Positions 1,962 to 58,608 of a stretch of 64,000 bases of DNA are shown one piece after another. Under the pieces are notes generated by a model. That model saw nothing but the letters and a program-made list of their open reading frames with translations, made no database searches and was not told the DNA's origin. Position 1 is the first letter of the stretch. Each line of letters begins with the position of its first letter. The stretch lies in the IMG/VR virus record IMGVR_UViG_644736339_000001, one strand, 5' to 3'. The position numbers and the translations under genes were made by a program. The DNA comes from a virus. Its lineage: Duplodnaviria > Caudoviricetes.

Positions 1962-2519
1962 TCACCCAGACGGTGCCGACAGCTTCGGAAGCGCCGGAGT
2001 ACAGCCGAGCGTCGTATACCCGGCCCGGATCGTCGCCACCGCCTTCTCGAACTGCTCCAACTGCCCAGGCGTGCCCGGCGTGCTCGACGTCGGATGCGTT
2101 GTTGCCGTCAGCAGTACCTGGTACAGCGGGCACAGCACCTTGATTCGCGTCTCCTGCTGCTGCTGAGCCGTCACGTAGCTCTGCCGCAGTGATGTCTGTA
2201 GCCGCTGGTTCGTCTGATCTTGCGAATACCACAGGCCAAGGCTGACCAGCGACAGCACAATGTCGAGGAGGACGACAATCCCGAACTTGGCGTTGGCGTA
2301 GCGCCGGTCCCGCCGCTCAGCCGCCACATCCGCGGCAGCCTTGGCCTTGGCCGCATCGATGTCCTCGTTCGCCTTGACGGTGGCGTCGTGCAGCTCAGTC
2401 CGGAGCGCCTTCAACTGCTGCATCACCGCATCGGCACTGCCGGCCACCTGCTCGGCAGCTTGAGTCAGCGTCGCTGTAGCGTCCTGCTCTGGAACGTCCG
2501 GGACCTGCACTTCAGTCAT
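1962..2519 (-). CDS. lysis-cassette membrane protein (coiled coil + 1 TM; holin/spanin-like accessory)
   Basis: TM FGIVVLLDIVLSLVSLGLW; coiled coil; downstream of the endolysin. Confidence 0.65.
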   Translation of the reverse strand: MTEVQVPDVPEQDATATLTQAAEQVAGSADAVMQQLKALRTELHDATVKANEDIDAAKAKAAADVAAERRDRRYANAKFGIVVLLDIVLSLVSLGLWYSQDQTNQRLQTSLRQSYVTAQQQQETRIKVLCPLYQVLLTATTHPTSSTPGTPGQLEQFEKAVATIRAGYTTLGCTPALPKLSAPSG

Positions 2520-2721
2520 TGCACTCCCCGGTTCGTTCCGCTGCCTGCTCCGCCATCTGCCGGATCTGAAGAGCGACGTCCTCCAGGCCGGTCACCAGCG
2601 AGTCAAGATTCGACGACACGCCCACCAGACGTTCCTCCAGTCGCGCCAGCGGTGCCGCGATCCGCTGTTCCGCGATCGCGACCGGGCTTGTTGGGTGGTG
2701 ACGACGGCGACGGAAAGGCAC
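2512..2721 (-). CDS. small coiled-coil protein in lysis cassette
   Basis: Fills the gap between two lysis-region genes and overlaps the next start. Confidence 0.45.
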   Translation of the reverse strand: MPFRRRRHHPTSPVAIAEQRIAAPLARLEERLVGVSSNLDSLVTGLEDVALQIRQMAEQAAERTGECND

Positions 2722-2733
2722 AATCTCGACTCC

Positions 2734-3225
2734 CTAGATCACGCCGCCGTGGCTCTGGCGCCGATGCGTTTCCAGCTCGGCTCTCAGCGTGTCACGTTCG
2801 ATAGTGATTGCGGCCAGTTCGTCCTGTGTCTCGTCCCGCTCCGCGGTCACCTCGGCCAACTGCTCCTCGAGCTGCTGGCGTTCGGCCGCCGAGGAGGTTG
2901 TCAGCGTTTCCATGGCGCTGGTTAAAGACGCCGCCGCGGACTCGAGATCCCCGACCTGCTTCTGCAGTGCCTTAATCCGCTGTTCGGCCTCGGACAGGGC
3001 TTCCTTAACTGGCTCCAGCAGGCTCAGCGCGGTCGCGGTCAGGCCTTGTGCGGTCTGGACGTCGTGCTGGTGCTCGGCTTCGTGAGCGTCGTTGGCATGT
3101 TGTTGTCGCTGCTCTTTGTGCTGGCGGCGAGTCAGGAAGTACGTACCGGCCGCGGCCAGCCCGGACGGGCCGCCGACGCCTACGACGACCGGCCACAGCG
3201 ATGACAGGGCACTGTGGGTCGCCAT
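2734..3225 (-). CDS. holin-like membrane protein (N-terminal TM + coiled coil)
   Basis: LWPVVVGVGGPSGLAAAGTYFL then a long coiled coil; directly after the endolysin; ATG 3225 chosen. Confidence 0.6.
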   Translation of the reverse strand: MATHSALSSLWPVVVGVGGPSGLAAAGTYFLTRRQHKEQRQQHANDAHEAEHQHDVQTAQGLTATALSLLEPVKEALSEAEQRIKALQKQVGDLESAAASLTSAMETLTTSSAAERQQLEEQLAEVTAERDETQDELAAITIERDTLRAELETHRRQSHGGVI

Positions 3226-3295
3226 GTACCCCGTGCCGGTTCTCAGCCGCTGGCCGTGGTTGCGGACGGGTGGGCATGTGACGTATGGATCGTGC

Positions 3296-4324
3296 TCACC
3301 GGTGCACTGCCTCAACGAGGTAGGCGAGCGGCACGTTCGGGTTTCCCCTGCGCGTAACGCTGATCTTCTGCACAGCGGTCGGCAGCGGCCCGCCGAAGGG
3401 GTTCACCCGATCGGCGGCGGCGTCGACCACCACGTCCTCGTAGATGTGCGACCAGCCCTGGCCGTGGGTGAAGATGGCGACCCGGACGGTCGCGGTGCCC
3501 ATGTCGGCACCGAGGCTGAACCAGACGTTGCCCCAGCCGGCCGCACCGTAGTTCGCCGGCGGGGGCAGCACCATCGTCACGGCGTTGGTGCCCGGCGTGA
3601 TTTCTCCAGTGGCGAATGCGGGCATGGTGTCGTCCCTCGGATCGGTGGAAGCGGGCGTCGGGGTCGAAGGCGGTGGCGTGACTGTTGCCGGGGCTGGCGG
3701 TTTCAAGTCCGCGACCAGCTGCGCAGCGGTGCCCTTGTACGCGTTGTAGTCCAGCTGCTGTCCGCCGTCGGACGCCTTGTTGGTGAACTGGTAGATCAGC
3801 GGCGTCATCTCGCCGTAGGGCTTCCAGCCCGCGGCACCGTCGCCCGGGTAGATGGCGGCCGGTCCGCCGGAGCCGCCCGGGTACGCCGAGGAGACCAGCG
3901 ACACCCCGCGGTCGGCCACGCCAGACAGGCTTGGCGAGCCAAGTTGCTGCCAGAACCAGCGCGGCAGATACAGCAGCCGAAGGTTCAGGCCGGCGTCGTG
4001 CGCGGCGTCGATGTAGGCAAGGATCTGCTTCAGCGTCGGTGAGAACTTGCCCGCCGGCTCCGCATCGAGCATGCCCGGCAGCAATACGTCGCCGACGTTC
4101 GCCAGCGTGTGCGCGGCCTGAGCGTGCGCGTCCTCGCCGGACAGGAAGTGGTACCAGGCGAACGGTCGGCGCAGCGCCGCGGCCTGCGCACGCCACGCCT
4201 GGTAGTCGGCGTCGGTGTAGTAGGTACCCTCAGTCGTCTTCGCGAGAACGAACGCGGCGTCCGCCAGGCGCGATAGCACCAGGCCGCTCTGAAAGCTGGA
4301 GATGTCCGGCCCGAAGATGGTCAT
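3296..4324 (-). CDS. endolysin, GH25 muramidase
   Basis: GPDISSFQ, KTTEGTYY, AWYHFL, LDAE, YQFT..LDYN motifs; Pro/Thr linker and C-terminal binding domain. Confidence 0.9.
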   Translation of the reverse strand: MTIFGPDISSFQSGLVLSRLADAAFVLAKTTEGTYYTDADYQAWRAQAAALRRPFAWYHFLSGEDAHAQAAHTLANVGDVLLPGMLDAEPAGKFSPTLKQILAYIDAAHDAGLNLRLLYLPRWFWQQLGSPSLSGVADRGVSLVSSAYPGGSGGPAAIYPGDGAAGWKPYGEMTPLIYQFTNKASDGGQQLDYNAYKGTAAQLVADLKPPAPATVTPPPSTPTPASTDPRDDTMPAFATGEITPGTNAVTMVLPPPANYGAAGWGNVWFSLGADMGTATVRVAIFTHGQGWSHIYEDVVVDAAADRVNPFGGPLPTAVQKISVTRRGNPNVPLAYLVEAVHR

Positions 4325-4617
4325 GAATCACGACTCCTCGCTGCCTGTTCGGCGTGGGCGTCGGCAATATGCTCCGCCGAGATCCGGTCCGGGACTGTGG
4401 GGTGGTGCTTTGCGCACGCTTTGAAGGCGGTCCCGACGACTGGGTGAGTGCCTGGGCGCCAGCAGAAACGCGGGCTGTTGACGTGGCAGGTGTGGCGCTT
4501 GTACAGCGCGGTCGCTCCGCCGACGAGCGTGAACTCACCCAGGCATGATCCGATGCCCGACCAGAAGTTGGCCCAGTAGCCGGGATCAAGTCCGAACACG
4601 TGCGCCAGCAGATTCAC
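4321..4617 (-). CDS. small membrane-associated Cys/His-containing protein
   Basis: Translationally coupled to the PLD and endolysin genes; hydrophobic N-half, CH..CW..CxKHH C-half. Confidence 0.65.
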
Positions 4618-5156
4618 CGCGCGGCGGACTTCGCGGCCGTCATGAGCATGTGCTGGTGGATCAGGTCCAGCCGAGACCGAGCCTCGGCCGCCACGTGCGG
4701 GTCCCGAATGACGATCGCCGCGTTATCCTGCATGCTCTCACCAGACGTCGACCAGTTCGTCGATCCGGTAAGCACGTCCAGCCCATCCACGATCACCATC
4801 TTCAGATGCATGATCGCGCCCTTCTCGGAGTGGCCGATCGCGATCGAGTTAGACGGGTACGCCTCCTTGGCGAGTAGGGCGCGTTCATGCGCACCACCCG
4901 ATTGAGACTTGTCGAGCGTCAGCTGCACATAGCAGTGCTCGGAATCCAGCTTCTCGTGTAGCGCTGCGGCCAGTTCGTCATCGTCGAACCCGAACATCGC
5001 GACCACCAGGCTGCGTTGCGCTGACGCGATGAGCTCTGCAAGGGCTCCGTGAACGTCGTCTACTGGCGAGTAGAAGGTGCGGAAGTTCACCGGGTAGCCC
5101 GCGGGGAACCCGTCCGTCTTGTGCTTGTCGAGAGCGGTCAGATCAGACAGCGGCAC
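4614..5156 (-). CDS. phospholipase D-superfamily protein, single HKD (Nuc/MitoPLD-like)
   Basis: [16 protein letters not shown] motif; SD GAGGAG before GTG. Confidence 0.88.
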
Positions 5157-5165
5157 GGGATCTCC

Positions 5166-6356
5166 TCACAGCTTCGTCACATCGAGCGAGTTCGCCATCA
5201 CCGCGGCGCCGGCCGAGTTCGGGTGCAGGTGGTCGCCCGAGTCGTAGGCGGTCTTGAGGTTCTCGTTGACGGCCGTCGCCGAGTTGAAGTCCGCGACCCC
5301 GTCCGCGCCGGACACGCCGCTGATCACCCACGCGTTGTAGGCGAGCCGCTGCGTCTCGACCGCGGACGTGCACAGCGAATCGCCCTCGCACGGTGTGATC
5401 GTGGACAGCAGGATCCGCAGGCCAGCAGCATGCGCGGACGCCACGAGCGAGGCCTGCGCCTGCTCCAGGACCTGTGCAGTCACCCCGCCGCGCAAGTCGT
5501 TGATCCCGTCGGCGTCGATGACGCTGCGGACTCCAGGCTGGTCGAGCACGTCCTGCTGCCAGCGATGTTGCAGGGAAGGTCCCAAGGAGCCCTTATCTTG
5601 AGTGACCCAGTTTCCGGCGATGCCCTCGTCAATGACCGACAGTCCGGCGGCGCTGACCCGGTCGGCGAGGTAGTTCGGCCAGCGGGTGTCCGTGTCGATG
5701 CCGGTGCCGGTGCCGTCGGTGATGGAGTCGCCCACCGCGACCACCGTGGACGGCGTTGTCGAGGACACGTCGACCCCGTCGAGCATCGTTACGAAACCGA
5801 ACGTGTTGCTGGTCGGGTAGTACTCGGCGGTGGAGACGTCGCCGCCGTTGTGGTTGTACTCGGTCTCGGTGGCGACGTCGTGACGGCTCGTCTGCGCCAA
5901 GGCCGCCCCGGACGCGACGTAGATGCTGACCAGCAACCTCGTGTTCGGTGCGACCGTGAAAGTGACCGGGTCGGACGCCACCTGGCCGCCGGCGGGGATC
6001 GTGACCGCCTGCGCGCCGCCGAAGGTCACCGTCGTCGGGACCGGCTCCAGCGTCGTGCCGCCGTTGAGCTGCGTCCCGACGGTGACGTGCCCGATCTGCG
6101 CCGCCTGTGGGGAGAACGCATCGGACAGGCGGATCCGCAGCGACGTCCCCCCGCCCGACGTCCTGACGACCATCCGCAACGTCTCGTTATCCCACGGGCC
6201 TGACACCGGCGCGTAGGCCGGCGCCGAGCCCCACGATGCCGTCCAGCCGGTGCCGGTGGTGGCAGTGGCAGTAGCCGGTCCGGCCGCCGACGAGACCGGA
6301 AGAACGAGGAGGACCGCAGCAGCCGTAGCCGCAAGGGCGGTGCGAAGCCGAATCAT
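5166..6356 (-). CDS. secreted SGNH/GDSL hydrolase
   Basis: Signal peptide MIRLRTALAATAAAVLLVLP; GDSITDG, GIAGN, GINDL, DHLHPN blocks. Confidence 0.9.
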   Translation of the reverse strand: MIRLRTALAATAAAVLLVLPVSSAAGPATATATTGTGWTASWGSAPAYAPVSGPWDNETLRMVVRTSGGGTSLRIRLSDAFSPQAAQIGHVTVGTQLNGGTTLEPVPTTVTFGGAQAVTIPAGGQVASDPVTFTVAPNTRLLVSIYVASGAALAQTSRHDVATETEYNHNGGDVSTAEYYPTSNTFGFVTMLDGVDVSSTTPSTVVAVGDSITDGTGTGIDTDTRWPNYLADRVSAAGLSVIDEGIAGNWVTQDKGSLGPSLQHRWQQDVLDQPGVRSVIDADGINDLRGGVTAQVLEQAQASLVASAHAAGLRILLSTITPCEGDSLCTSAVETQRLAYNAWVISGVSGADGVADFNSATAVNENLKTAYDSGDHLHPNSAGAAVMANSLDVTKL

Positions 6357-6468
6357 GAATGTACCCAAATGATGTCGAGAAGGGATGTGGCCTCTGCGGT
6401 CCCGCAGAGCCGGATTACCTCCACCACCCACACCGCCTGTAGCAGAATGCTGATAGGGGGTGAGGCTC

Positions 6469-6792
6469 GTGCAGATCGATGCTGCTCTCAACTTTGTTGC
6501 GCTGGTTGCGCCGCTCGTCCTGTCCTACTGCGTTGCGGGCGCTACCCTGCGCGGGCTGCGCGCCTGGAGGCGACACGCGTGGCGCGCACGGCTGGAACAG
6601 CAGCCATTCCACCCGCGGATGCTTCCGACCTTGGGACAGCACACGGCCACCGGGCTCAGCGGACTGACCCCGGACGCCTGGTACGCCAACCTCGCAGACG
6701 ATGCCATCAAGGGCCGGCGCAGGAGAGGGCCAAGCTGGCTGGACTACCTGGAGGAGTTCCATCCAGAAAAGGGGGCATGGCGCGGCCGGTGA
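6469..6792 (+). CDS. small single-TM hypothetical protein (moron-like, opposite strand)
   Basis: SD GGGGGTGAGG before GTG 6469; N-terminal hydrophobic segment. Confidence 0.5.
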   Translation: MQIDAALNFVALVAPLVLSYCVAGATLRGLRAWRRHAWRARLEQQPFHPRMLPTLGQHTATGLSGLTPDAWYANLADDAIKGRRRRGPSWLDYLEEFHPEKGAWRGR

Positions 6793-6827: not shown

Positions 6828-7382
6828 TCAGCTCATCCCATACACGCTGAAGACCGATCCGGCACTGAAGCTCCCCGAGTTCGGGAACAGCAGGAGGCTC
6901 GTAATGATCGCCGACACGTTGTACTGGCCGCTGAAACGCCCAGACCAGGAGTCCGATACGGTGTTGAAAGCCGCTGAGATGCCCACCGTAGTCGAGAAGC
7001 CGGTGCCGTCGGAAATGCCGTCCACAGTGAAATTCCCGGAGGAGTAGTAATTCGCGGTGGCGTTCGCGCCCATCATCGTGGCGATCTGGATCTGAGTCGT
7101 CAGGCCGCCCGAGCTGGCCGAGGTTGCGGTGCTGTTCTCCGTCTCCGTCTTCTGCCACAGGTAGTGGCTGCCCGAATCGCCGTTCATCTGCAGCCATAAC
7201 TGCTCCGCACCAACCGCAGCCGTACCGCGGGCGCGCCAGAACACCTGGACCCGGTTGAACCCTGAGGAGACGAAAAGTGGCATATTTGCGGTAGTCCCGG
7301 TGAGTACTGTGGAGCTGATCAGCGGGAAGTCGGCGTTTAGCTCGGCAGCGGTGAGGCGCTGCCCAGCGGAGAACGTCGGCAC
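6828..7382 (-). CDS. minor tail / tail fiber protein
   Basis: MPTFSAGQRLTAAELN N-terminus typical of actinophage tail fiber proteins; beta-rich. Confidence 0.7.
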   Translation of the reverse strand: MPTFSAGQRLTAAELNADFPLISSTVLTGTTANMPLFVSSGFNRVQVFWRARGTAAVGAEQLWLQMNGDSGSHYLWQKTETENSTATSASSGGLTTQIQIATMMGANATANYYSSGNFTVDGISDGTGFSTTVGISAAFNTVSDSWSGRFSGQYNVSAIITSLLLFPNSGSFSAGSVFSVYGMS

Positions 7383-7392
7383 GGGGCAACTC

Positions 7393-9675
7393 CTAGAGGC
7401 TCAAGACCATGGGCTGCCACAGCCGGACATCGGTGAACGTGGCCTGGGATTTGACGACACCGTTGACGGATCGGATCACGGTGAATATCTGGTGGTAGGG
7501 CGGCGTGGACGCGACGATATTCGTGACCGTCATGCGCTCCCCGCCAACCGCGATATCGAAAGGGAAATCACCGGCGCTGGTCGTCCACAGCGGCGAGTTG
7601 CCGAACGCGGCGCCGGCTGTGGTGACCACAAGCGTCGTGTCGGTCGGGCCGTAATTCGCCGCCAGGTGAGACCCGTCGGTATCCAGGCGCCCCAGCACCG
7701 AGTCGTCAAGCACCGCAATGCGGTAGGGCGCTTCCGGGCTGCAGTTCAGCGCCATGTCGTGCTCGAACACGCCCAGCGTCTCTGAGTAGCCCTGCAGCAC
7801 CTGCGAGATCGGATCCGGCGGCAACCAACCCGGCAGGTTCAAAACCGCGACACGGTCGCCAATGTCCATGGTGAGCGCTGCGACCAGGAGTGCCGGGTTC
7901 GAAGTGAAGGTGGGATGGCGCAGGTTTAGCGAGATCGACGGATAGCGGGGCTCGTCAACAGTGCCCAGTAGCAGCCGCCAGCCGGCCTGATCAGTGAGTT
8001 GGGCATCGCCGCCGACGGAGATGCTGACGCCGTTCGGGTAGGGCCCGACACCAGACGGCGGCGACTGTGTCGACATGGCCCCGCTGGTCAGCGCCTGCCT
8101 GGCCGAAGATCCATTAATCCGGCTGACGGTGATGTCGTTTCGGGTAAACCGATCGTCGTCCAGCGGGGCCAGCGGTGCCGACAGTTGGTGAGCGGAGACG
8201 TCCAAGGTCAACTGCGGACTCTGGTTGTACAGCGATACACGCTTACGGAGAACCAGTTCGGCTTGGTCACGGGCCTCGAACAGGATGCCGCCATCGGTGT
8301 CCACGACCTGCTGAACGAGGTTGGTAAAAGTGTCCGACAGCTGGTACCCCATGGTCACGGAGTCGTCAAAAACTGAACCGGTAAGCGCTGCTGACGCGCT
8401 CACGCCAGGTTCCTCGAAGTTCAATCGCACAAATCGGTCAGCTGTGGCCTCGCCGATCCAGGCATTCAAGGGCTGCGCCAGGTTGAACAGGCTGTCCCAA
8501 ACGGACTGGTAGGAGACGTGACCGATGGCCGTGTCGTTGATGTGACCATCGGGGTTGATGACGACGCCGTATGCGCTGCCGGTTGCCGACGAAGTCAAGG
8601 TCCCTGATGCGGACAACGCGCCCGACGCGCCAGGGCTCAGGACAGTGGTGGCCCAGGTGATGTTGGCCCCCGAGGTTATCAGCTCCATGGAGACGCGCAG
8701 CAGCTTGCCGTTGACGGCGAAACCGACGTAGCCGGAGGAGAACAACAGGGTTCCGGAAACGCTGTATCCGGAGATTTGCAGCGACCCGTTGCTTGCCGAA
8801 CCGTATTGCAGGTCCAGTCGGGCCACCCGGCCGGAGGTGAACAGGCGTGCAATGACGGCAGTGTCAAAGGCGCCGGTCGCAGGCACGGCAAGCAGGAAGC
8901 GCAGAACGTTGTCGGTGCCATTGAACGGATCTGCCGGGATCGCGCCATTCCAGATGCTGGCCGACAGCAGCGGCAGTGAGTCTGAGCACAGAAACCCGGT
9001 GAAGTTGGAAAGGCTGGGCGGAGCCTGCCCCGACAAGGTCAGGGCTGTGCCCGTCGGCCACGCCAACGCCGACGCCAACGATGTTGCGGTCTGGCCGTCC
9101 TCGCAAGGCCAGTACGCTACCGCGGACGATACGCCAGCGCTGAGAGTGTACGCCCGTCGCATCGCCGAGCCCTCGGGGACATTGCCCTGGTTCAGCCGTC
9201 GCAGGATTCCGGACGCCTGGATCTGCGTGTACACGTCGGACCCGGAAATATCCCAGGTGGTGGGCCACGACGGAACCTCGCCGTAAAACCGGTACCACGG
9301 ATCGTTGGACCCGTTGACCAGACGTGAGACGCGGATCGCGGTGTTGCGCCCCAATACCCCGTAGTAGGGGCCGAGGGGATTCTTCGGGGTGAACCGGCCG
9401 TCGCGATTGTTCAGCGTCAGCGTGCAGGTCTGAGGCTGGGCCCCAGAGGTCTCATCGGGGCGACCCCTGGTAATTCTGATGCGGTCCCGGTAGTACACGT
9501 ATGGGGTGATGTCGGTCCAGTCGTTTCCGGACGGGTCCAACATGATCTCGACGCGGATGCCGATCGGACCGCCGGGGCCGGTGTCGAACGGCTGCCCGGC
9601 CGGGTTCATAGGGCTGGGGGTGTTGCGTCGCCACCGCGGACCCCACGACGATAACTGTGCCGCAATGTTGGTCAC
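7393..9675 (-). CDS. minor tail protein (tail tip/baseplate hub-like)
   Basis: WTDITPYV..ITRGRPDE..LTLNNRDGRF motif; AYWPCED; downstream of the tape measure gene. Confidence 0.8.
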   Translation of the reverse strand: MTNIAAQLSSWGPRWRRNTPSPMNPAGQPFDTGPGGPIGIRVEIMLDPSGNDWTDITPYVYYRDRIRITRGRPDETSGAQPQTCTLTLNNRDGRFTPKNPLGPYYGVLGRNTAIRVSRLVNGSNDPWYRFYGEVPSWPTTWDISGSDVYTQIQASGILRRLNQGNVPEGSAMRRAYTLSAGVSSAVAYWPCEDGQTATSLASALAWPTGTALTLSGQAPPSLSNFTGFLCSDSLPLLSASIWNGAIPADPFNGTDNVLRFLLAVPATGAFDTAVIARLFTSGRVARLDLQYGSASNGSLQISGYSVSGTLLFSSGYVGFAVNGKLLRVSMELITSGANITWATTVLSPGASGALSASGTLTSSATGSAYGVVINPDGHINDTAIGHVSYQSVWDSLFNLAQPLNAWIGEATADRFVRLNFEEPGVSASAALTGSVFDDSVTMGYQLSDTFTNLVQQVVDTDGGILFEARDQAELVLRKRVSLYNQSPQLTLDVSAHQLSAPLAPLDDDRFTRNDITVSRINGSSARQALTSGAMSTQSPPSGVGPYPNGVSISVGGDAQLTDQAGWRLLLGTVDEPRYPSISLNLRHPTFTSNPALLVAALTMDIGDRVAVLNLPGWLPPDPISQVLQGYSETLGVFEHDMALNCSPEAPYRIAVLDDSVLGRLDTDGSHLAANYGPTDTTLVVTTAGAAFGNSPLWTTSAGDFPFDIAVGGERMTVTNIVASTPPYHQIFTVIRSVNGVVKSQATFTDVRLWQPMVLSL

Positions 9676-9696
9676 AGCACCCCCGTTGCGTTTTTG

Positions 9697-50842: not shown

Positions 50843-50970
50843 GCCTGTCACCTTCCCGCGCATGCACTAGTCCACGCAACCCCTACGCCGGTTCGCCAGG
50901 GACTACCTGTTGACGCCGGCGTCACCATCGTGCTTGCGCACTCCCGAACGTTCCTTAACAAGGGCAGCCG

Positions 50971-52170
50971 ATGACCACCGATGACCAGGCCTTCGACCTC
51001 GTCGCGGCCGAAGATTTACGCCTGTCCTACACGTCAGTCCGGGACTGGACAATGCTCCACCCCGAGCTGCGCGGCACGCCATTCCAGCTGTACGCCATCA
51101 TGCGATCACTGGTGATCGACAAGGCCGGAGATCAGCCGTCGCGCCGCATCACCCTCGATCAGTTGTGCTGGCTGCTGCCGGGCGTCAACGGCAAGCCGAC
51201 ATCGCTGACCGTCGTGAAGGACGCGCTTCGAGCGCTGGACAGGCTGGGCTTGGTAACGAACCCCGACAGCGAACGCCTGGTCACGTCCACGGGCGACCGC
51301 GGCATCAAGTCTCGGCGCCGCTTCCAGATCAACGACCTGCCGCCCGACGGATTCCGAGGCTGGCGCAACGCCTGGGACAAGCTGGACAGCTACCGCGAGG
51401 AATGGCGCACCGTCGCACCTAAACCGCCGGCCCTCGGCTCCGCGCCGGTTCGAAACGAACTCGATGACGGCCAGGACCAGCGACCCAAAACGGACGTCGG
51501 CGGCATCGAACAGACTCTCGAGGGTCGGAATTCCGACCATCGAGCCAACCAGGCAGAACAGGACGAAACCCCAGGTCATCTCGATGGTCGGAATTCCGAC
51601 CGTGCTGGACGGAATTCCGCCCACGGCGGACGGAATTCCGTCCGACAACTGGCATCTGACCAGCCCCAACGGGCCCCTAAGAAGTTTCTCAAAGAAGGTT
51701 CTCTCTCTACGGTCGCCTCAGCGGCGACCGATGCGGACCCCACCAGGCGAGAGAGAGAACCCGTCTGCGACGAAGAACCAGACCCCGCCGACCTGATCGT
51801 GAAGGCGTGGGCCGACGCCTGGACCAGAACCCGCAGCGGCCCATACCCCGTCAGGTCCCCGGACGCCGTTCGTCGCAATGCCCGGCGACTCCTGGCCGAC
51901 GGCAGCAATGTCGACCTTCTGTGCATGGCCGCAGCCAACATGGCCGAGCGCGGCTGGATCGACCTCGACAAGCACCTGGAGCGCTGGATCCCACCGAAGA
52001 CGCCGGGATCGCCCGCAGCCGACACATCCGGCCGTACCGCAGCCGACTGCCGCTGGTGCGACCCGTTCGGCTGGTACGAGCATGCCAACGGCGACGGCGC
52101 CCGCTGTAACCACCCCAACGACCCGCCGGCCGGACACCCGGCCGCCACCAACACCAGGAGCGCCGCATGA
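50971..52170 (+). CDS. replication initiator protein 1 (lambda O-like layout)
   Basis: N-terminal wHTH, internal iterons, C-terminal CRWCD..CNH; coupled to dnaB. Confidence 0.75.
   Translation: MTTDDQAFDLVAAEDLRLSYTSVRDWTMLHPELRGTPFQLYAIMRSLVIDKAGDQPSRRITLDQLCWLLPGVNGKPTSLTVVKDALRALDRLGLVTNPDSERLVTSTGDRGIKSRRRFQINDLPPDGFRGWRNAWDKLDSYREEWRTVAPKPPALGSAPVRNELDDGQDQRPKTDVGGIEQTLEGRNSDHRANQAEQDETPGHLDGRNSDRAGRNSAHGGRNSVRQLASDQPQRAPKKFLKEGSLSTVASAATDADPTRREREPVCDEEPDPADLIVKAWADAWTRTRSGPYPVRSPDAVRRNARRLLADGSNVDLLCMAAANMAERGWIDLDKHLERWIPPKTPGSPAADTSGRTAADCRWCDPFGWYEHANGDGARCNHPNDPPAGHPAATNTRSAA
51523..51643. repeat. four 16-bp palindromic iterons (probable origin)
   Basis: GG(T/A)CGGAATTCCGNCC at 51523, 51586, 51607, 51628 (spacings 63, 21, 21). 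Confidence 0.85.
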
Positions 52171-53513
52171 CCGACCAGGAGACCGACGCGCCAGGGCATA
52201 TCCGCACCCCGCCGTCCGACCTCGACGCCGAACAGTGCGTCCTCGGCGGCATGCTGCTGTCCGCCGATGCCATCGGCGACGTCCTTGACCTGCCGCTCGC
52301 CGGCAACGACTTTTACAAACCCGCCCACGAGACGATCTTCGCCGCGATCCTGGACCTGCACAGCCGCAGCGAACCCGCAGACGCCGTCACCGTCGGCGCA
52401 CTACTTGCCAAATCCGGCGACCTTAACCACATCGGCGGCGGACCCTACCTGCACACCCTCATTAACTCGGTGCCGACCGCAGCCAACGCCGGCTACTACG
52501 CCGACATCGTCAAAGAACTCGCAGTCCTACGCCGCCTCGGCGAAGCCGGAACCCGCATTGTCCAAATGAGCTACGTCACCGACCGGTCCGACGCCGCCAC
52601 CGTCGTCGACCTCGCCGCGGCCGAAATCCAGGCCGTCACCGGAGACACCCGGACCGACGGCGTCACCACAGTCGCCGACGAAGCCGAAACCTTCCTTGAA
52701 GGGCTGCTCGACAACACCAAACCCCGCAACTACCTGCCCACCCCCTACCGGGACTTCCGCGACGCCGTACCCATCGAAGGCGGCGACATGGTCGTCGTGG
52801 CCGGCGACACCGGCATGGGCAAGTCCGTCGTGATGGTTGACTTCGTCCGCCACGCCGCCATCGAATGCCGCAAGCGCACGCTGCTGGTATCGATCGAGAT
52901 GAACGCCGACCAGCTCATGCAGCGCATGTTCGCCGCCGAAGCGAAAGTGCCCCTGCACCACCTGCGCGGCGACGTCAACATCGACGACTTCGAACAGAAA
53001 CGGCTCGGCAAAGCAGCCGGCCGGATCCTCGACGCACCCATCGACATGATCGTTGACGGAACGGTCACGCTCGGCCGGATCCGCTCCACCCTGCGCCGCA
53101 TGCAAGCCCGGCACATGCTGCCCGAGCTGGTCGTCATCGACTACCTGCAGATCCTCACCCCCGAACGCGAAACCGGAAACCGCACCATCGACGTCGGCGC
53201 GCTGTCCCGCGGAATCAAGCGCATCGCCATGGACTTCCGGATACCGGTTATCGTCGGCGCCCAGCTCAACCGGCAGCTCAACGGCCGCACCGACAAGCGC
53301 CCCGTCCTGTCCGACCTGCGCGAGTCGGGATCCATCGGGCAGGACGCGAACATCGTGGTGCTGCTGTACCGGGAGGACTACTACGAGCGCGAATCCCCGC
53401 GCGCCGGCGAACTCGAACTGATCGTCGCGAAGAACCGGCAGGGCCCGCTGTGCAACATCACCATCGGCTTTCAGGGGCATTATTCGCGGGCCCTGGACAT
53501 GGCGCAGACGTGA
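52167..53513 (+). CDS. dnaB: replicative DNA helicase
   Basis: AEQCVLGGML, GDTGMGKS, VIDYLQI, AQLNR, LRESGSIGQDA, AKNRQGP. Confidence 0.95.
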   Translation: MTDQETDAPGHIRTPPSDLDAEQCVLGGMLLSADAIGDVLDLPLAGNDFYKPAHETIFAAILDLHSRSEPADAVTVGALLAKSGDLNHIGGGPYLHTLINSVPTAANAGYYADIVKELAVLRRLGEAGTRIVQMSYVTDRSDAATVVDLAAAEIQAVTGDTRTDGVTTVADEAETFLEGLLDNTKPRNYLPTPYRDFRDAVPIEGGDMVVVAGDTGMGKSVVMVDFVRHAAIECRKRTLLVSIEMNADQLMQRMFAAEAKVPLHHLRGDVNIDDFEQKRLGKAAGRILDAPIDMIVDGTVTLGRIRSTLRRMQARHMLPELVVIDYLQILTPERETGNRTIDVGALSRGIKRIAMDFRIPVIVGAQLNRQLNGRTDKRPVLSDLRESGSIGQDANIVVLLYREDYYERESPRAGELELIVAKNRQGPLCNITIGFQGHYSRALDMAQT

Positions 53514-53521
53514 CCAGCGGG

Positions 53522-54064
53522 TCAGCGGTTCGTCCAGGCCCAGCGGAACCGATACGCGCCGGCAACCAGCCGCATGTCCGACACCTTAACCACCTGCCCG
53601 GATGCGTCGATGCCGCGCCGCACAATCCGCACCACCGCAGTCATGTCGTCGATGCCGAGCCTGTCCCGCTCATCGGCAGTCACGTTCTCACGCTCAACGA
53701 ACTCAACGTCCTCGGAAAACGAAACCAGCTCGTGCCCGAGTTCAGCCAGCCGCGCCGGGACGCCACCGGGGCCGGTGTTCAAGCCTCCGATCGGCGTGCC
53801 CTCGGCGAGCTTCGCCGGCAGGTAGGAACGGGCCCAGCAGACGCGCTTGCCGTCCACCGCGTAGACGCGGTCACGGACGATCGCGTTCCTGCCGAGATCG
53901 GCGGCGTCTTCGTCTCCCGCGTCTTCTGCATAGGTGACGGCCAACTCGAGAACCTCAAACTGGCGGTCGCCGGCATCGGCGGACCATACGGACTTGCCTG
54001 CGGTGCGCGGCTCGGCGGACAGGCGGGCGTTGGCGTCACGGAAGATCGGCTCAAAGTCGGTCAC
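53522..54064 (-). CDS. stand-alone UTRA domain protein (copy 2)
   Basis: IVRDRVY..ARSYLP..GTPI..GPGG..SEDV; no HTH. Confidence 0.8.
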   Translation of the reverse strand: MTDFEPIFRDANARLSAEPRTAGKSVWSADAGDRQFEVLELAVTYAEDAGDEDAADLGRNAIVRDRVYAVDGKRVCWARSYLPAKLAEGTPIGGLNTGPGGVPARLAELGHELVSFSEDVEFVERENVTADERDRLGIDDMTAVVRIVRRGIDASGQVVKVSDMRLVAGAYRFRWAWTNR

Positions 54065-54073
54065 GGCGCCGTC

Positions 54074-54331
54074 CTACCCTGCCCACACAACGTCAACGAT
54101 TGTCACCGTCGCAGCGGTTTCGTTCACCACGTAAACAATCATTCCGTATGGTCCAACCGCCAACATCCGCGTAACGAACGCGCCCTCGGATTTCACCGAC
54201 GAGCCAACACCGTGCGGATCGTTCGGCAACTCCAGCATCGCCAGCACAAACGCCTGGTGGATGTCCTTGGCCATGGCCGGGCTTCCCACCACAGCGGAGG
54301 CTTCCTCGGTGATGACCAGGCTGTAGCTCAC
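54074..54331 (-). CDS. RelE/ParE-like putative toxin (copy 2)
   Basis: 85 aa; YSLVITEEA..NDPHG..VGPYGMIVYVV..VTIVDVVWAG. Confidence 0.7.
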   Translation of the reverse strand: MSYSLVITEEASAVVGSPAMAKDIHQAFVLAMLELPNDPHGVGSSVKSEGAFVTRMLAVGPYGMIVYVVNETAATVTIVDVVWAG

Positions 54332-54648
54332 CGGCTGCTATGCCCGACGTATGGGCGGCCGTGGCGCTGCTCGAACTGCTCGGCGAAGTCCGGAATCACG
54401 TCTTCGATCGGGACCGTCCGTGCCGTACCGGCCTTGACCTGCTCGACCCGGCCCCAGGTGCCGGCGCGGTTCATGACCGCGGTCAGCCACCACTTCTCGA
54501 CTGTGGCCCGCAGGCTGCCGGCTTCGATGTCCTCAAGCTCGGCCATGAACTGGTTCCGCTGCTCGGCCGTGAGCGCCTGCTTTATGGCGCGGATCGTGCG
54601 CGGCAGGGAGATTCGGTGTGGTGTCGCATCCGACGGCTCGGCACTCAT
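54328..54648 (-). CDS. DUF6247-like putative antitoxin (copy 2)
   Basis: MSAEP..RTIRAIKQAL..F..KWW; overlaps the toxin start; possibly leaderless (TACGTT 6 nt before ATG). Confidence 0.7.
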   Translation of the reverse strand: MSAEPSDATPHRISLPRTIRAIKQALTAEQRNQFMAELEDIEAGSLRATVEKWWLTAVMNRAGTWGRVEQVKAGTARTVPIEDVIPDFAEQFEQRHGRPYVGHSSR

Positions 54649-54781
54649 AAGGCCAACGTACCGGCGCGGTGCGGTCACCGCCATGATGACCTCGCACTTT
54701 GGTGGATGCACTTTCCTGTATGAACTGCTGGTCGGCGCATGTTTCAATGCGACGGCACGGGCAGCTGCCACGCGCTCCATT

Positions 54782-55216
54782 TCAGCCACAGTCCCCAATC
54801 GTGACCTGGGCTTTCTTCAGCCTCGGTGCTGGCGTGGCGTCGGGGTTGTAGCCCGGGTTGTCGCTGAGCCAAGCCGCTTGGGTGCAGTCGCCAGGCCCGT
54901 TCGGGCTCGAGGTTTTGAGCGTGTCGAACGTCAGCTTGCAGTGCTCCGGGTCAGTGCCGCCAAGCTCGATTGCCGAGTCCGGCAGGCCCGGTTCCCGCTG
55001 CCATTCGATGACGTCGCCGCGGTCCGGCAGGGGAGTGGCGCAGGTTTCAACCGGCACGGACGGCTCGCTGGTGGTGCTCACGGCCGGGGGTGTTGCGGTA
55101 GTGGCAACACCGGCTGGGTGCGCTGCCGGGGCGGCTGCGGGCTTGCTGGCGCTACTGGAGCATCCCGCCAGCATCAGGACGGCAGCAGCTGCAACGGCGG
55201 TGGCTGTACGACGCAT
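54782..55216 (-). CDS. lipoprotein
   Basis: Lipobox LAGC after a signal peptide; Pro/Ala/Thr linker; four further Cys. Confidence 0.75.
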   Translation of the reverse strand: MRRTATAVAAAAVLMLAGCSSSASKPAAAPAAHPAGVATTATPPAVSTTSEPSVPVETCATPLPDRGDVIEWQREPGLPDSAIELGGTDPEHCKLTFDTLKTSSPNGPGDCTQAAWLSDNPGYNPDATPAPRLKKAQVTIGDCG

Positions 55217-56009: not shown

Positions 56010-56180
56010 TCAGTCATCGGCCCAGTCGAAGCCGCGAAGCGGTTCCCCAGGCGCATCAAGCTCATCCAGCCGCGCCCGGACAACGGCAGCCATGTCCTCG
56101 CTCATTGCCCAGCCGGCCAACGGCGACTCCTCAGGTGGCTCGCTGTCGTCAACGTCGTGGTAGTCGTCGAAACCGTTCAT
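56010..56180 (-). CDS. small acidic protein
   Basis: SD AGGGGG before ATG 56180. Confidence 0.4.
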   Translation of the reverse strand: MNGFDDYHDVDDSEPPEESPLAGWAMSEDMAAVVRARLDELDAPGEPLRGFDWADD

Positions 56181-56556
56181 ATTGCCCCCTGAAATCCGGC
56201 TGCCTGGCAATGGCCAAACGCGTTCGCAGCGTAACCCGAAACCGGCTTGATCGGCCCGGTTTGACCAAGATTCAGCATGATCGGGTCAAGCCACGGCAAA
56301 GAGATCCACAAGTCGCGTCGTCGCAGTGCTGGATCATGCCTTCGCCGCAGGTCAGAGGTGTCGTTTTGGGACGTGCGGGACCCCTGGACGCGGTAAGATT
56401 TATCAGCACAGAAACGCCAAAACCGGGCCCGAAGGCCCGGCCCTGGACGACGAGTGTGCAGCCCGTCGTAAAGCTCTCCGTCGCACCCACGCAAGGAGAC
56501 CGCATGAAGCGTGTCTTAAGTATATACAACACCACGAACTGTGTGGTGGTGTTCGC

Positions 56557-57597
56557 GTGAACATCGAGGTCCACCGTCTCCGAGTCGGCGCGTCTGGATT
56601 CGAACGCGCGCCAAACGGGGCGACCTTCAACAAGGAACTGTCGATCGCTGCCATCGGGCTGCTGGTGCGACTACTGGCCGACGGCTGCAACCACTCGTCC
56701 ATCGATGCAATCGCCGAGTTCTACAGTCCAGGCAGCGCGGACGGGAAGCAGCGGCGGGGGATGGGGCGCGATGCCTACCGGGCTGCCGCCAAGGAGTTGG
56801 AAGCGGAAGGCCACCTTGCGCGAGAGCGGATCGTGGTGAACGGGCTTCCAGGCTGGCGGATTCAAGTTTTCGCGCAGCCGAATGTGCCTAATGCCCGTTC
56901 CGTCCCAACGACGGCTAAGCCACTTCCGGCCTCACCTGCGGGAACGACGCATTCTCCCAGCTCGTCTCCGGTGACGGCTGAACCACTTTCGGTTTCACCT
57001 GCGGAAACAGGGCAAACGCCCAGTTCGCGCCCAACGACGGCTAAGCCGTCGTCATTCCTTACAGACTTTTCTACAGACGAACAGACCCCTTTCCCCCACC
57101 TTCCCAGTGACGCTCCAGATTGGATGCCGCCAGCTGGCGCGGAGGGGGAGGAGGTCCAGGAGGAGGGGGAGGGTTCGGAAATCGAAGACGAGGTTCAAAA
57201 GCGCGCTGCCGTCTTCGTTGAGCAGCTCCCCTTCGACCGGCACCCAGGACGCCGACGACGGCAGGGACTCCAGGCGGTCGTTTCCCAAAATCTGGCCTCC
57301 GGCTGGTCCGAGGACGACCTCATGGAGGTCTGTGTTGCCGGTCTGGCGACCGCCAACGATCGGATAGCGGTCTGGATGTCCAGGCTCGATCCGGAGGAGC
57401 TTGGTCCTGCTCCAAAAGCGGAGCAGGACGATTCTGAAGCGAATTTGAAGCCGGGGTGGGTTCCGAAGCCGCGCCGCAACTCTGATGGCCACCAGACGTG
57501 GCAGGACCCCGATTCGCATAGCTACCACGCCCCAAAGGGCCAGCACCAAGGCTGGGAGAACCCCACCGACCCCGATGCCTACGAAGGCACGTTCTGA
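56557..57597 (+). CDS. replication initiator-like protein 2 (N-terminal wHTH)
   Basis: LSIAAIGLLVRLL..GRDAYRAAAKELEAEGHL; internal 63-bp repeats. Confidence 0.7.
   Translation: MNIEVHRLRVGASGFERAPNGATFNKELSIAAIGLLVRLLADGCNHSSIDAIAEFYSPGSADGKQRRGMGRDAYRAAAKELEAEGHLARERIVVNGLPGWRIQVFAQPNVPNARSVPTTAKPLPASPAGTTHSPSSSPVTAEPLSVSPAETGQTPSSRPTTAKPSSFLTDFSTDEQTPFPHLPSDAPDWMPPAGAEGEEVQEEGEGSEIEDEVQKRAAVFVEQLPFDRHPGRRRRQGLQAVVSQNLASGWSEDDLMEVCVAGLATANDRIAVWMSRLDPEELGPAPKAEQDDSEANLKPGWVPKPRRNSDGHQTWQDPDSHSYHAPKGQHQGWENPTDPDAYEGTF
56904..57053 (+). repeat. 63-bp tandem repeats (second iteron array)
   Basis: GACGGCT(A/G)A at 56910, 56973, 57036; TCACCTGCGG in the first two units. Confidence 0.8.
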
Positions 57598-57609
57598 TTA
57601 GGAGGAATC

Positions 57610-58608
57610 ATGTCCGACGACCTCATCCTCTTCGAGGCGAAGCCGATGCCGAAGCGACGGACCGCCCACATTGACGCCCTACCGGAGCCGCTGGTCGACA
57701 CCTTCGAAGAGTTCTGGCGCGCCTACCCCCGGAAGGTCGGCAAGGCGCACGCGCGGAAGATCTACGCGAAGGCGGTCGCCAACGGCGCCGATCCGACGAA
57801 GATCCTGGCCGCCGCGCAGGAGTTCCGCAGCTACTGCGAGGACACCGGCCGCGAACAGAAGTTCATCCGGCATGCCGCTCGCTGGCTGAATGAGGCGTCG
57901 TGGGGGAAGGGGCTGCCGTTTGCCGATGCGCCGCTTCGGGTGAAGCCCGTGCAACCTCCGACCCCTGATGAACTTGCGCTTCTGGAGCCTGTGACGCCCC
58001 GACCACAGCGCTCCAGCAGCCGGGTACCGGTGCCCCGCGATACGCAACAGCGCGCCGACATCCTTGCCCGCGCCTACTGCGTCCTTCAGCCGCTGAGCTA
58101 TCACCACCGCGTCATGCGGATCGTGGAGGGCGCGATTGCTGCCGGCCGCTGGCACGACAAGGAGATCCGCTGGGCGCTGCTGCAACTGGCGAAAGCGGAT
58201 CGCAAGGTGACTGCCGAGACGTTGCGTACCGAGCTGCTTTACCGGCTGAGCGAGCGTCGGCAGGAGCGTGAATCCGGCACGTTGAGTCCGGACGCGGTGG
58301 TGTATCTCATCAAGGCCGACGAGTCGCCACTGGTGAAGATAGGCACCTCCGAGACGGCGCCGGAGCGGTTGTACGCGCTTCAATTGTCCTGCCCGGTGGA
58401 GTTGCGGATCTTGCACACCGTTCCCGGTACCTACGAGCTGGAGAAGGCGCTGCACCACGAGTTCCGGAGCCGGCGGCGGCACGGGGAGTGGTTCGACTTC
58501 TCTGACGTCGACCCGGTCGAAGCAGTAACACGTCGACTGCCGCACGTTCTGAAGCGGTTGGAAGAAGCGCGCACCGCCGCCAACACCCTGACCAAGGAGC
58601 CTTCATGA
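57610..58608 (+). CDS. phage replication-protein-like domain fused to GIY-YIG (T5orf172/MUG113-like) nuclease
   Basis: FEEFWRAYPRKVGK..HAARWLN; VYLI..VKIGTS..RL..LQ..EKALHHEF..GEWF. Confidence 0.8.
   Translation: MSDDLILFEAKPMPKRRTAHIDALPEPLVDTFEEFWRAYPRKVGKAHARKIYAKAVANGADPTKILAAAQEFRSYCEDTGREQKFIRHAARWLNEASWGKGLPFADAPLRVKPVQPPTPDELALLEPVTPRPQRSSSRVPVPRDTQQRADILARAYCVLQPLSYHHRVMRIVEGAIAAGRWHDKEIRWALLQLAKADRKVTAETLRTELLYRLSERRQERESGTLSPDAVVYLIKADESPLVKIGTSETAPERLYALQLSCPVELRILHTVPGTYELEKALHHEFRSRRRHGEWFDFSDVDPVEAVTRRLPHVLKRLEEARTAANTLTKEPS

Follow-up and report, generated by a model that had tools for sequence, protein, structure and literature searches.

A 64,000-nucleotide stretch of viral DNA (the window) combines tailed-phage genes with a putative DNA-transfer locus of the actinomycete plasmid type, which raises the question of whether this locus is part of the phage genome and what it would be used for. 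The genomic context showed that the window is the middle 64 kb of one 136.9-kb prophage, by its genes of the temperate siphovirus type, in a filamentous actinomycete. The prophage extends from window coordinate -4033 to 132910. Exact 50-bp direct repeats, of which the region contains only two copies, were located at -4033 and 132861, and the att ends thus lie 4 kb to the left and 69 kb to the right of the window. The repeat corresponds to the 3' end of tRNA-Pro(GGG), the integration site of the prophage. The right copy is overlapped by an intact tRNA-Pro(GGG), which is adjoined by a 439-aa ORF encoding a tyrosine integrase (phrog_1, E = 2.7e-29) and, beyond it, by the host EngA gene. The host is a septate, mycelial actinomycete; tRNA-Pro is a hot spot for integration in its genus, and DNA adjoining tRNA-Pro in two relatives is matched by a remnant of an integrase to the left of attL. 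An earlier note on this DNA had stated that integrase and att repeats were missing. This holds inside the window only, because the window edge falls short of the element ends, where the flank check proposed in that note revealed both. Integration at tRNA-Pro, the tyrosine integrase, the 50-bp att repeats and the lack of ParA led us to abandon the phage-plasmid option; the only partitioning-type gene found encodes a ParB_N domain.

The closest complete viral relative is the IMG/VR genome G031 (124,744 bp, 110-bp end overlap, CheckV 100%), a circular 124.6-kb metagenomic viral genome that is colinear with the whole element in circularly permuted form. Blastp matches in G031 were obtained for 94 of the 233 genes called in the compared stretch, which takes in a few flanking host genes. 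As previously proposed, the window contains a complete siphovirus module, with minus-strand genes for morphogenesis and lysis at 2-31 kb (PHROGs, Pfam):

1962-6491, minus strand: lysis cassette (Pfam; homologues in G031)
1962-2519 and 2734-3315, minus strand: two holin-like genes of the lysis cassette
3296-4324, minus strand: GH25 endolysin (Pfam)
4614-5156, minus strand: single-HKD PLD (Pfam)
5166-6491, minus strand: SGNH/GDSL esterase (Pfam)
6828-22625, minus strand: tail and head-tail joining genes (PHROGs; G031 homologues 55-93% identical)
10929-14378, minus strand: tape measure (PHROGs)
16138-16896, minus strand: major tail (PHROGs)
18108-19166, minus strand: adaptor-like gene (PHROGs)
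22795-31718, minus strand: head and packaging genes (PHROGs; tblastn to phages)
22795-24237, minus strand: MCP (PHROGs)
24192-25889, minus strand: protease (PHROGs)
25886-29194, minus strand: portal fusion, 1102 aa (PHROGs)
29514-30968, minus strand: TerL (PHROGs)
30984-31718, minus strand: 244-aa gene of the packaging block
35418-35769, minus strand: phage-borne tRNAs Ser-GCT, Ser-CGA and Met-CAT (ARAGORN)
35920-36950, minus strand: 83-aa HTH protein (excisionase/regulator-like) and 260-aa DNA-binding protein (phrog_66, E = 1e-6; phrog_1568; phrog_1467)

The MCP is 93% identical to that of G031, where the 83-aa HTH and 260-aa DNA-binding genes are also conserved (60-68%). No PLSDB actinomycete plasmid shared the capsid gene of the element.

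Replication genes of the theta type had also been proposed. This was borne out for DnaB, while the long plus-strand ORF that might have encoded Rep (48671-50974) was rejected, being a shadow ORF of four real genes on the minus strand. The sole remaining Rep candidate, a 399-aa gene, gave no family match.

49445-50863, minus strand: real genes under the shadow ORF (frame plot), i.e. UTRA-only (49445-49975), 84 aa (50195-50449) and DUF6247 (50456-50863)
50971-53513, plus strand: replication module of initiator candidate and DnaB (G031 homologues 60% and 82% identical)
50971-52170, plus strand: 399-aa initiator candidate, with four CGGAATTCCG iterons at 51526-51633
52167-53513, plus strand: DnaB helicase
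53522-54798, minus strand: second copy of the three-gene set, i.e. UTRA-only (53522-54064), 85 aa and DUF6247-like

The putative transfer locus belongs to a minus-strand early operon, which has a GntR/UTRA regulator at its head (49.4 kb) and, after a last gene at 37.1 kb, a terminator at its end (37.0 kb). Its six-gene core encodes, in order, a 3-TM protein, DUF2637, a second 3-TM protein, an Ala-rich protein with hydrophobic N-terminus, the TraB-type ATPase and a 131-aa protein:

48668-49441, minus strand: GntR+UTRA regulator (HutC-type, KorSA/TraR-like), operon head (Pfam GntR 4e-10, UTRA 3.5e-11; frame plot)
43751-48526, minus strand: about 16 small early genes, partly common to G031
48323-48526, minus strand: HTH_17/xis-like protein
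47938-48240, minus strand: DUF6907
45423-45929, minus strand: HATPase_c_2, anti-sigma-kinase-like
42927-43715, minus strand: first core gene, encoding a 262-aa protein with three predicted TM segments
41827-42930, minus strand: DUF2637 membrane protein, 367 aa (Pfam, E = 2.8e-51)
41709-41810, minus strand: 11-bp palindrome GTGAACTTCAC, present three times without mismatch in the gap between DUF2637 and the 198-aa gene
41081-41677, minus strand: 198-aa protein with three predicted TM segments
39796-41073, minus strand: 425-aa protein, hydrophobic N-terminus, Ala-rich, probably coiled-coil C-terminus
37751-39796, minus strand: predicted TraB-like FtsK/SpoIIIE-family dsDNA translocase, 681 aa (profile, PDB and plasmid-protein comparisons)
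37070-37847, minus strand: two small genes downstream of traB, 94 aa and 131-162 aa
37018-37046, minus strand: intrinsic-terminator-like hairpin (11-bp stem, 7-nt loop, T run) ending the operon

The xis-like HTH and the KorSA/TraR-like GntR regulator named in the earlier note were thus recovered, as was the co-orientation of the module with the putative late regulator (the 260-aa gene, 36168-36950), from which it is separated by a 119-bp gap with the hairpin and T run. The description of the membrane genes as Spd-like stood for the predicted membrane-protein cluster with its DUF2637 member, but not for Spd homology. The 425-aa gene and traB are translationally coupled, and the second small gene 3' of traB is kept beside it in relatives (55-79%).

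The 681-aa protein consists of a helical N-terminus, a Walker A/B ATPase (Walker A VGSTGSGKS) and a C-terminal winged helix, the latter predicted by AlphaFold with pLDDT 83-87. Its assignment as a TraB/FtsK translocase was upheld by this P-loop and by matches to NCBIfam plasmid_TraB (E = 3.9e-8), the FtsK/SpoIIIE-like phrog_1358 (4e-8) and the EccC FtsK/SpoIIIE structure in PDB (4e-4; 7e-6 with profile). It is approximately 30% identical to Tra/TraB from 84 actinomycete plasmids and groups with plasmid transfer proteins (E = 1e-14 to 1e-32), apart from phage FtsK-likes; tblastn against 50,697 phage records gave no match. Walker A, Walker B and the winged helix are invariant in 14 TraB-family sequences that are 40-81% identical to it. 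We consider it probable that the protein acts as a TraB-type dsDNA pump.

Such a locus could be an independent AICE or plasmid fragment that landed in the prophage and is still able to excise and transfer alone. The GC content of 38-48 kb (0.68-0.69 compared with 0.64-0.67 in the rest of the window) and the lack of a homologue of the TraB core (37.1-44.1 kb) in G031 would fit such an origin. However, the block is embedded in a co-oriented operon, the genes flanking this operon are conserved in G031, no direct repeats flanking the terminator end and no second integrase were found, and an AICE-type Rep was not detected among the window proteins scanned. The element also gave no match to PF00589 or PF07508, PF00589 having missed even its own integrase. 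Furthermore, TraB orthologues (54%, 73%, and 77% identical) occur on three unrelated, phage-like metagenome contigs from different samples in a common gene order, i.e. GntR/UTRA, HTH_17, small genes, 200-aa, 360-450-aa, TraB and 130-aa, with DUF2637 recorded upstream in two of them. Two contigs extend far enough to show TerL and portal coming next (83% and 81% identical to those of the window in L105). The arrangement looked for in the synteny check recurs. Related phages hold different genes at the matching position. In G031, a non-orthologous FtsK-like and DUF2637-like pair is enclosed by homologues of the genes that flank the block in the window, and such a pair is found at about the same distance upstream of the MCP in G036 (MCP 85%) and G037 (MCP 72%). 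The FtsK-likes of G031 and G037 are 30% identical to Gilgamesh gp10. At least two, and probably three, mutually unalignable FtsK-like lineages occupy this position. Because the orthologues keep their arrangement and the relatives hold different pairs in the same place, the comparison of gene orders showed the six-gene core to be an inherited part of the phage lineage, as the earlier note had it for the TraB/DUF2637/GntR block; a nested AICE has a very slight probability. Anatomy and integral phage cassette, taken jointly, appear highly probable.

For the function of this inherited cassette, spread of the phage genome through the mycelium is our leading explanation. TraB would assemble at the membrane with the neighbouring membrane proteins, either upon infection or once the excised element has replicated from the iteron origin. 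The complex would pump double-stranded phage DNA across hyphal cross-walls or hypha-to-hypha contacts, as in Streptomyces plasmids and AICEs, and the genome would spread without lysis, besides the virion route. Passages of two sources attribute intramycelial spread to TraB/Spd complexes (PMC4447253, PMC2440964). The GntR regulator would hold the sub-operon off via the triple palindrome upstream of the 198-aa gene. All three GTGAACTTCAC copies are invariant in the same intergenic gap of the window and the contigs L104, L105, and L106, while the DNA around them diverges; 0.67 matches would be expected by chance in the window. The triple is a candidate operator (Kor/GntR-type) or clt-like site.

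Several observations count against this explanation. The plasmid_TraB match reached 32 bits, with an equivalog cut-off of 800; Pfam FtsK_SpoIIIE gave no match at E<0.01; and the ATPase part was poorly modelled by AlphaFold (mean pLDDT 45). Spd homology of the membrane proteins was not detectable with Pfam, NCBIfam or PHROGs, the search around traB yielded no clt/TRS-like cluster of direct repeats, and more distant relatives with 70-95-kb genomes carry neither gene of the pair. To our knowledge, a 137-kb circular DNA also exceeds any AICE that transfers in this way. Overall, we give the explanation, mechanism included, slightly less than an even chance, and actual spread of the phage genome by hyphae or conjugation seems possible but somewhat doubtful.

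Alternatively, pump and membrane partners may serve a phage-internal purpose and not transfer to new cells, e.g. (i) superinfection exclusion of phage or plasmid DNA; (ii) helping DNA entry; or (iii) passing the prophage on to spores, with phage DNA being cleared or partitioned where sporulation septa or cross-walls form. The earlier view that these are not standard phage genes was overstated, as PHROGs contains FtsK/SpoIIIE-like families, in the category 'moron, auxiliary metabolic gene and host takeover', and the phages Gilgamesh (129 kb, with a tyrosine integrase), Jaresh, AndoPrime, and Geonosis encode such proteins. Several of the newly isolated Streptomyces phages with these genes are presumably lytic, which suggests that the pumps may have a role other than conjugation. 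Likewise, the unalignable lineages at one position suggest that the phages are selected for a function which pumps of different kinds are able to provide. In contrast, the window version groups with plasmid transfer proteins, had no counterpart in the phage records searched, and is accompanied by a GntR regulator and a string of membrane proteins typical of actinomycete transfer and spread loci (PMC2440964). We regard a phage-internal role as unlikely. A decaying or silent cargo, to which the missing TraB version in G031 could point, is improbable given the intact reading frames with coupled starts and stops, the invariant ATPase motifs and winged helix, and the palindromes conserved amid diverging DNA. 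Still less probable is a prophage cargo that defends against phages or plasmids: TraB gave weak matches to PADLOC mad8 (E = 3.5e-8), HerA and SspH, but these are generic P-loop matches at the level of the TraB and FtsK ones, and none of the other nine block proteins matched a PADLOC model.

Spread by both virions and hyphae, as the leading explanation proposes, may be considered plausible. Its precedents are pZL12, for which there are experiments, PhiNon1 with the same gene block, and the FtsK-like genes of isolated Streptomyces phages. The combination of phage and transfer genes is already known in Streptomyces from the plasmid-phage pZL12/phiZL12, reportedly described by Zhong et al. in 2010 (J Bacteriol 192:3747). 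[quoted passage not shown] As far as these passages go, pZL12 resembles our element in uniting tailed-phage structural genes and an actinomycete tra locus on one replicon, the likeness here lying in the genes alone. It differs as a 90-kb autonomous circular plasmid with ParA/ParB, whereas the element, a 137-kb prophage with a tyrosine integrase, is integrated in the chromosome and lacks ParA. PhiNon1 of Nonomuraea gerenzanensis (NZ_LT559120) shares integration at a tRNA 3' end, a 50-bp att and the DUF2637 to TraB-like gene block; passages of PMC5431353 report its integration and phage structural genes, and in these passages neither a TraB-like gene nor a transfer function is mentioned. The block comprises a DUF2637 gene, small genes, a 396-aa gene and, five genes past DUF2637, a 654-aa TraB-like gene whose product aligned with the window TraB at E = 4e-17. 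PhiNon1 differs in its 59 kb, in being mainly a multicopy circle, by the same passages, and in structural genes unrelated to those of the element. Gilgamesh (gp10, adjoined by a membrane protein gene), Jaresh, AndoPrime, and Geonosis likewise have an FtsK-family ATPase among the early genes of a large actinophage, but the window protein falls into the plasmid TraB group and not into that of Gilgamesh (E = 1e-6 for the latter vs 1e-32). Finally, AICEs (pSAM2, SLP1, pMEA300) and Streptomyces conjugative plasmids (pIJ101, pSVH1) share with the element a mycelial host, tRNA integration by a tyrosine integrase, a Kor-like regulator of the GntR type, and one FtsK-like Tra/TraB pump with small hydrophobic proteins next to it (PMC2440964). 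The three AICEs are 11-17 kb in size, replicate by means of RepSA, RepAM or Prim-Pol and lack virion genes, whereas the element combines 137 kb, a complete virion and lysis gene set, and an iteron-bearing initiator candidate with DnaB.

The window covers bases 3,231,958-3,295,957 of one 10,467,782-bp contig, and its host, taken to be Catenulispora acidiphila DSM 44928, is a septate filamentous actinomycete (PMC3035231). It lies within a low-GC stretch at about 3.22-3.37 Mb (GC about 0.66; genome mean, 0.70). When the flanks were compared by k-mers, a perfect direct repeat of 50 bp was revealed, with copies at window coordinates -4033 and 132861 and no others in the region. The right copy forms the 3′ end of an intact tRNA-Pro(GGG) gene, beyond which the host EngA gene is found, and the tRNA gene is adjoined by a 439-aa ORF identified as an integrase by PHROGs (phrog_1, E = 2.7e-29). 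When the Pfam families PF00589 and PF07508 were searched over the whole genome, no match was obtained within the island; PF00589 missed the integrase because the protein is too divergent, and PHROGs alone found it. The earlier note had reported neither integrase nor att site, but the element proved to be an integrated prophage of 136.9 kb with both, its ends lying beyond the window.

A 58-aa remnant of an integrase C-terminus was detected just left of attL (L002:15727-15903; window -4273 to -4097) and has counterparts in two congeners (L141 and L142), where the matching sequence flanks tRNA-Pro. In several congeners, further att copies are also located at distances of 23-89 kb from tRNA-Pro. 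Together, these observations point to tRNA-Pro(GGG) by engA as a hot spot at which elements integrate and accrete in tandem. The 80 kb of the element outside the window form a dense array of small genes, including those for a C-5 cytosine methylase (L005:15962-17413), a T4-type RNA ligase (L004:6589-7848), and a 552-aa HNH protein (L005:7897-9555), as well as, in the accessory region, an IS605-family OrfB/TnpB with a Cas12f-like TNB domain (L004:823-2076; window 84823-86076).

Genes were called by the contrast between GC3 and GC2 because ORF lists are useless at high GC. Between 2 and 31 kb, the minus strand encodes a full siphovirus set, comprising TerL, a portal fusion, protease, major capsid protein (MCP), adaptor, major tail protein, and tape measure. 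With its lysis genes, integrase, and att repeats, the element thus has the gene complement of a temperate tailed phage. Beyond the tRNA genes, a co-oriented operon runs from 49.4 to 37.07 kb. The main features are as follows:

Within 2-31 kb, minus strand: tape measure protein, 1149 aa (PHROGs)
Within 2-31 kb, minus strand: lysis cassette with GH25, PLD, and SGNH domains
25886-29194, minus strand: portal fusion, 1102 aa, with a portal-family match in the first third or so only
35.4-35.8 kb: three tRNA genes
37018-37046, minus strand: hairpin terminator, reached after a further small gene that follows the 131-aa gene
Core of the operon, minus strand, in order: 262-aa protein with 3 TM, DUF2637 protein, 198-aa protein with 3 TM, 425-aa protein (hydrophobic N-terminus, Ala-rich tail), 681-aa TraB-like ATPase (37751-39796), 131-aa gene
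Between HTH_17 and core, minus strand: about 16 small genes, including those for a HATPase_c_2 protein and DUF6907
48323-48526, minus strand: HTH_17 protein
48668-49441, minus strand: GntR+UTRA regulator at the head of the operon
Upstream of dnaB: 399-aa initiator candidate without family match, with iterons inside
Beside the 399-aa gene: DnaB helicase

When 49 kb of the window were compared by megablast with 50,697 phage records, no match was obtained. Using the MCP as query, 239 relatives were found in IMG/VR. The best long relative, G031, encodes an MCP with 93% identity and is rated complete, with 124,744 bp whose ends overlap by 110 bp, as in a circular assembly of about 124.6 kb. The island is colinear with G031 throughout by blastn and blastp, matches to G031 being found for 94 of the 233 genes called in the compared stretch. 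The integrase/att region is where the G031 circle closes; G031 encodes a PF00589 integrase of its own. This colinearity indicates that the element is one phage and not a patchwork.

One departure was noted at the terminase. Window positions 29514-31460 (TerL and its upstream neighbor) have no homolog in G031 46044-47934, while the genes on either side are 66-81% identical. The metagenome contig L105 encodes a TerL 83% identical to that of the window, and a further contig, L106, carries yet another TerL. Judged from these comparisons, members of one lineage have exchanged their terminase module. The portal of L106 is recorded as a 1031-aa product with a NUDIX domain (L106:21452-22046); the window's portal has an extra C-terminal part beyond its portal-family match. 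Across the MCP family (window 22795-24237; IMG/VR loci L009-L088; 47-93% identity), genomes measure 47 kb (Streptomyces phage Dagobah), 50-95 kb, or 125-137 kb. Either capsid size is widely variable within the family, or packaging of the largest genomes is incomplete.

The TraB-like ATPase has the FtsK/SpoIIIE-type P-loop motor domain of the TraB/Tra family, with a Walker A (VGSTGSGKS) and a Walker B-type (IIIDEFP) motif. Matches were obtained to EccC (E = 4e-4, or 7e-6 with a profile) and FtsK (2iuu, E = 9e-3) in the PDB and to phrog_1358 (FtsK/SpoIIIE-like, E = 4e-8). The match to NCBIfam plasmid_TraB (NF041214; pSVH1/pIJ101 type; E = 3.9e-8) scored 32.3 bits against an equivalog cut-off of 800 and so stays below the curated threshold. 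By tblastn, relatives with about 30% identity over 250-350 residues occur in 84 actinomycete plasmids, including pIJ101-like 'transfer protein' genes and large plasmids of Streptomyces, Kitasatospora, and Micromonospora. We take the protein for a remote member of the Tra/TraB group and not for an equivalog. AlphaFold2 on a 14-sequence alignment gave a mean pLDDT of 45, the usable parts being a small beta domain and a predicted C-terminal winged helix (residues about 610-670; three-helix bundle plus wing; pLDDT 83-87). Because most of this model is unusable, Foldseek matches are weak: the winged-helix region matched winged-helix proteins, and the low-confidence whole model was closest in fold to the FtsK motor and TcpA. 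An ESM Atlas search with the neighboring 425-aa core protein returned only coiled-coil look-alikes. For the ATPase, PADLOC gave generic P-loop matches only, and a defense role is considered unlikely.

No match was obtained by tblastn of TraB or of DUF2637 against the 50,697 phage records, by a peptide-pattern search for TraB in IMG/VR, or, besides the window's own copy, in 12 genus genomes (E ≤ 1e-30) and 30 family genomes (E ≤ 1e-40). A profile search of GTDB species genomes found relatives of 26-31% identity only. Three 'joints' in sequencing runs were spurious, resting on 20-22 nt. Among the runs listed, which included no RNA run, X1 is probably the source; X2-X4 represent one low-depth sample (organism B), and since their contigs and the window are identical, they are not independent. 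Metagenome and Logan assemblies yielded 14 homologs with 40-81% identity.

These homologs bear on the possibility, named in the earlier note, that the block is an independent AICE nested in a prophage. Some AICE traits are present: a GntR-type regulator, a Kor type shared by AICEs (as is XRE), accompanies a Tra protein (48668-49441 and 37751-39796), and an integrase gene lies beside a tRNA att site, yet the repeats bound the whole 137-kb prophage and not the TraB block. AICEs are about 9-24 kb in size. Instead of their small size, RepSA, RepAM, or Prim-Pol genes, and lack of virion genes, we found 136.9 kb with full head, tail, and lysis genes, and no match to the RepSA, RepAM, and Prim-Pol Pfam families among the window proteins scanned. 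The three longest contexts (L104, L105, and L106), which derive from three different samples, share the order GntR/UTRA, HTH_17, small genes, 200-aa gene, 360-450-aa gene, TraB, and 130-aa gene. An upstream DUF2637 is recorded in two of the three (L106 and, weakly, L104) and a HATPase gene in L105 and L106. In both contigs that are long enough, TerL and portal follow the block; those of L105 are 83 and 81% identical to the window's, respectively. A nested element was rejected on this arrangement.

The corresponding position is also occupied in other relatives. In G031, the homologs of 44132-44605 and 36168-36890 enclose a DUF2637-like gene and, immediately after it, a gene for a 730-aa FtsK-like protein that cannot be aligned with the window's TraB. 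A similar pair is found at about the same distance upstream of the MCP gene in two other viral relatives, G036 (MCP 85% identical) and G037 (72%); both genes are absent from the more distant 70-95-kb relatives. All-against-all comparison separated the FtsK-like proteins into three groups: (i) the window's TraB, its orthologs, PhiNon1, and plasmid Tra proteins; (ii) G031, G037, and gp10 of Streptomyces phage Gilgamesh; and (iii) a third type in G036, whose reading frame may be incompletely extracted. The position is conserved and its cassette exchangeable, as is characteristic of a function under selection in the phage.

The 149-bp gap between the DUF2637 and 198-aa genes contains three exact copies of the 11-bp palindrome GTGAACTTCAC (41709-41810), two of them separated by 14 bp and the third located about 30 bp before the start codon. 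None of the three varies among the four loci (the window, L104, L105, and L106), whereas the DNA around them averages 52% column identity. The window has no further exact copy (chance expectation, 0.67 matches with one mismatch allowed), and the whole genome has 20. For the TraB family, a clt with repeated 8-bp recognition sequences would be expected; a search for clt-like clusters of direct 8-mers near traB gave none, picking up instead the iterons of the origin and a low-complexity repeat in coding sequence, and the triple palindrome is the sole conserved repeat there. Its GT...AC form fits GntR-family operators, and we therefore favor a candidate Kor-type operator of the TraB sub-operon over a clt. 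A consensus promoter scan around the palindromes found nothing.

At 51526-51633, the 399-aa gene contains four copies of the palindromic iteron CGGAATTCCG (within GTCGGAATTCCGAC), with no others in the window. By analogy with lambda O, the cluster is probably a replication origin embedded in its own initiator gene. On either side of the replication genes, a three-gene set (DUF6247, an 84-85-aa protein, and a UTRA-only protein) is present in two diverged copies (49445-50863 and 53522-54798), DUF6247 having solid Pfam support in the first copy only. A 767-aa plus-strand ORF at 48671-50974, first read as Rep, was dismissed as a shadow, since frame plotting and Pfam matches put four minus-strand genes there (GntR+UTRA, UTRA-only, 84 aa, and DUF6247). 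It shows high GC1 and low GC3 and even has a 50% identical 'homolog' in G031, illustrating that shadows can mislead. Phage-plasmids of the P1/N15/pZL12 type combine extrachromosomal lysogeny with partition. The present element is chromosomal between att repeats, and a search of the island for ParA-type matches gave none, the one ParB_N-domain gene lying at about 116.5 kb; the phage-plasmid option raised earlier is thus not indicated. A transient plasmid state after excision is possible.

Of the original proposal, the genes stand, as does the central idea that a phage genome carries a transfer module of plasmid type controlled by a GntR regulator, while its readings of integration, plasmid state, and novelty had to be corrected. 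In mycelial actinomycetes, a single-protein dsDNA pump suffices for plasmid transfer, so that a phage could gain this ability cheaply. We consider it plausible, at somewhat below even chances, that the TraB-like pump moves the phage genome between hyphae. A broader reading is more speculative and rather unlikely on present evidence: the 125-137-kb genomes would be a temperate phage lineage of mycelial actinomycetes with a fixed slot for a dsDNA pump and DUF2637, filled by interchangeable cassettes, here TraB and spread genes with a GntR switch and a triple operator. The phage genome could then pass through cross-walls and between hyphae without lysis. If so, the element would be a conjugative prophage that makes virions too, and the unexplained FtsK-like genes of actinophages would gain a general function. 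As the host is a culturable type strain, the role of these FtsK/TraB-like genes is directly testable. The case also cautions that large prophages can be mistaken for AICEs by pipelines that rely on FtsK plus integrase.

Gene flow by phages and gene flow by conjugative elements are commonly regarded as distinct. The plasmid-phage pZL12 suggests that one element can use both virions and conjugation. Features of AICEs and the roles of TraB, Spd, and KorSA have been reviewed (PMC2440964), and complexes of TraB and Spd are reported to drive intramycelial spread (PMC4447253). PhiNon1 of Nonomuraea has been described as a tRNA-integrating 'plasmid-phage' (PMC5431353), and its record shows a DUF2637 gene together with a TraB-like homolog of the window's gene; FtsK/SpoIIIE-like genes have also been reported in isolated Streptomyces phages. 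The combination of phage and transfer module is therefore not unprecedented. To these precedents, the present element adds that the combination (i) is found outside Streptomyces too, in the form of a very large integrated prophage; (ii) is inherited within a phage lineage recurring in metagenome assemblies from several samples; and (iii) occupies one genomic position that holds differing FtsK-like pumps among related phages.
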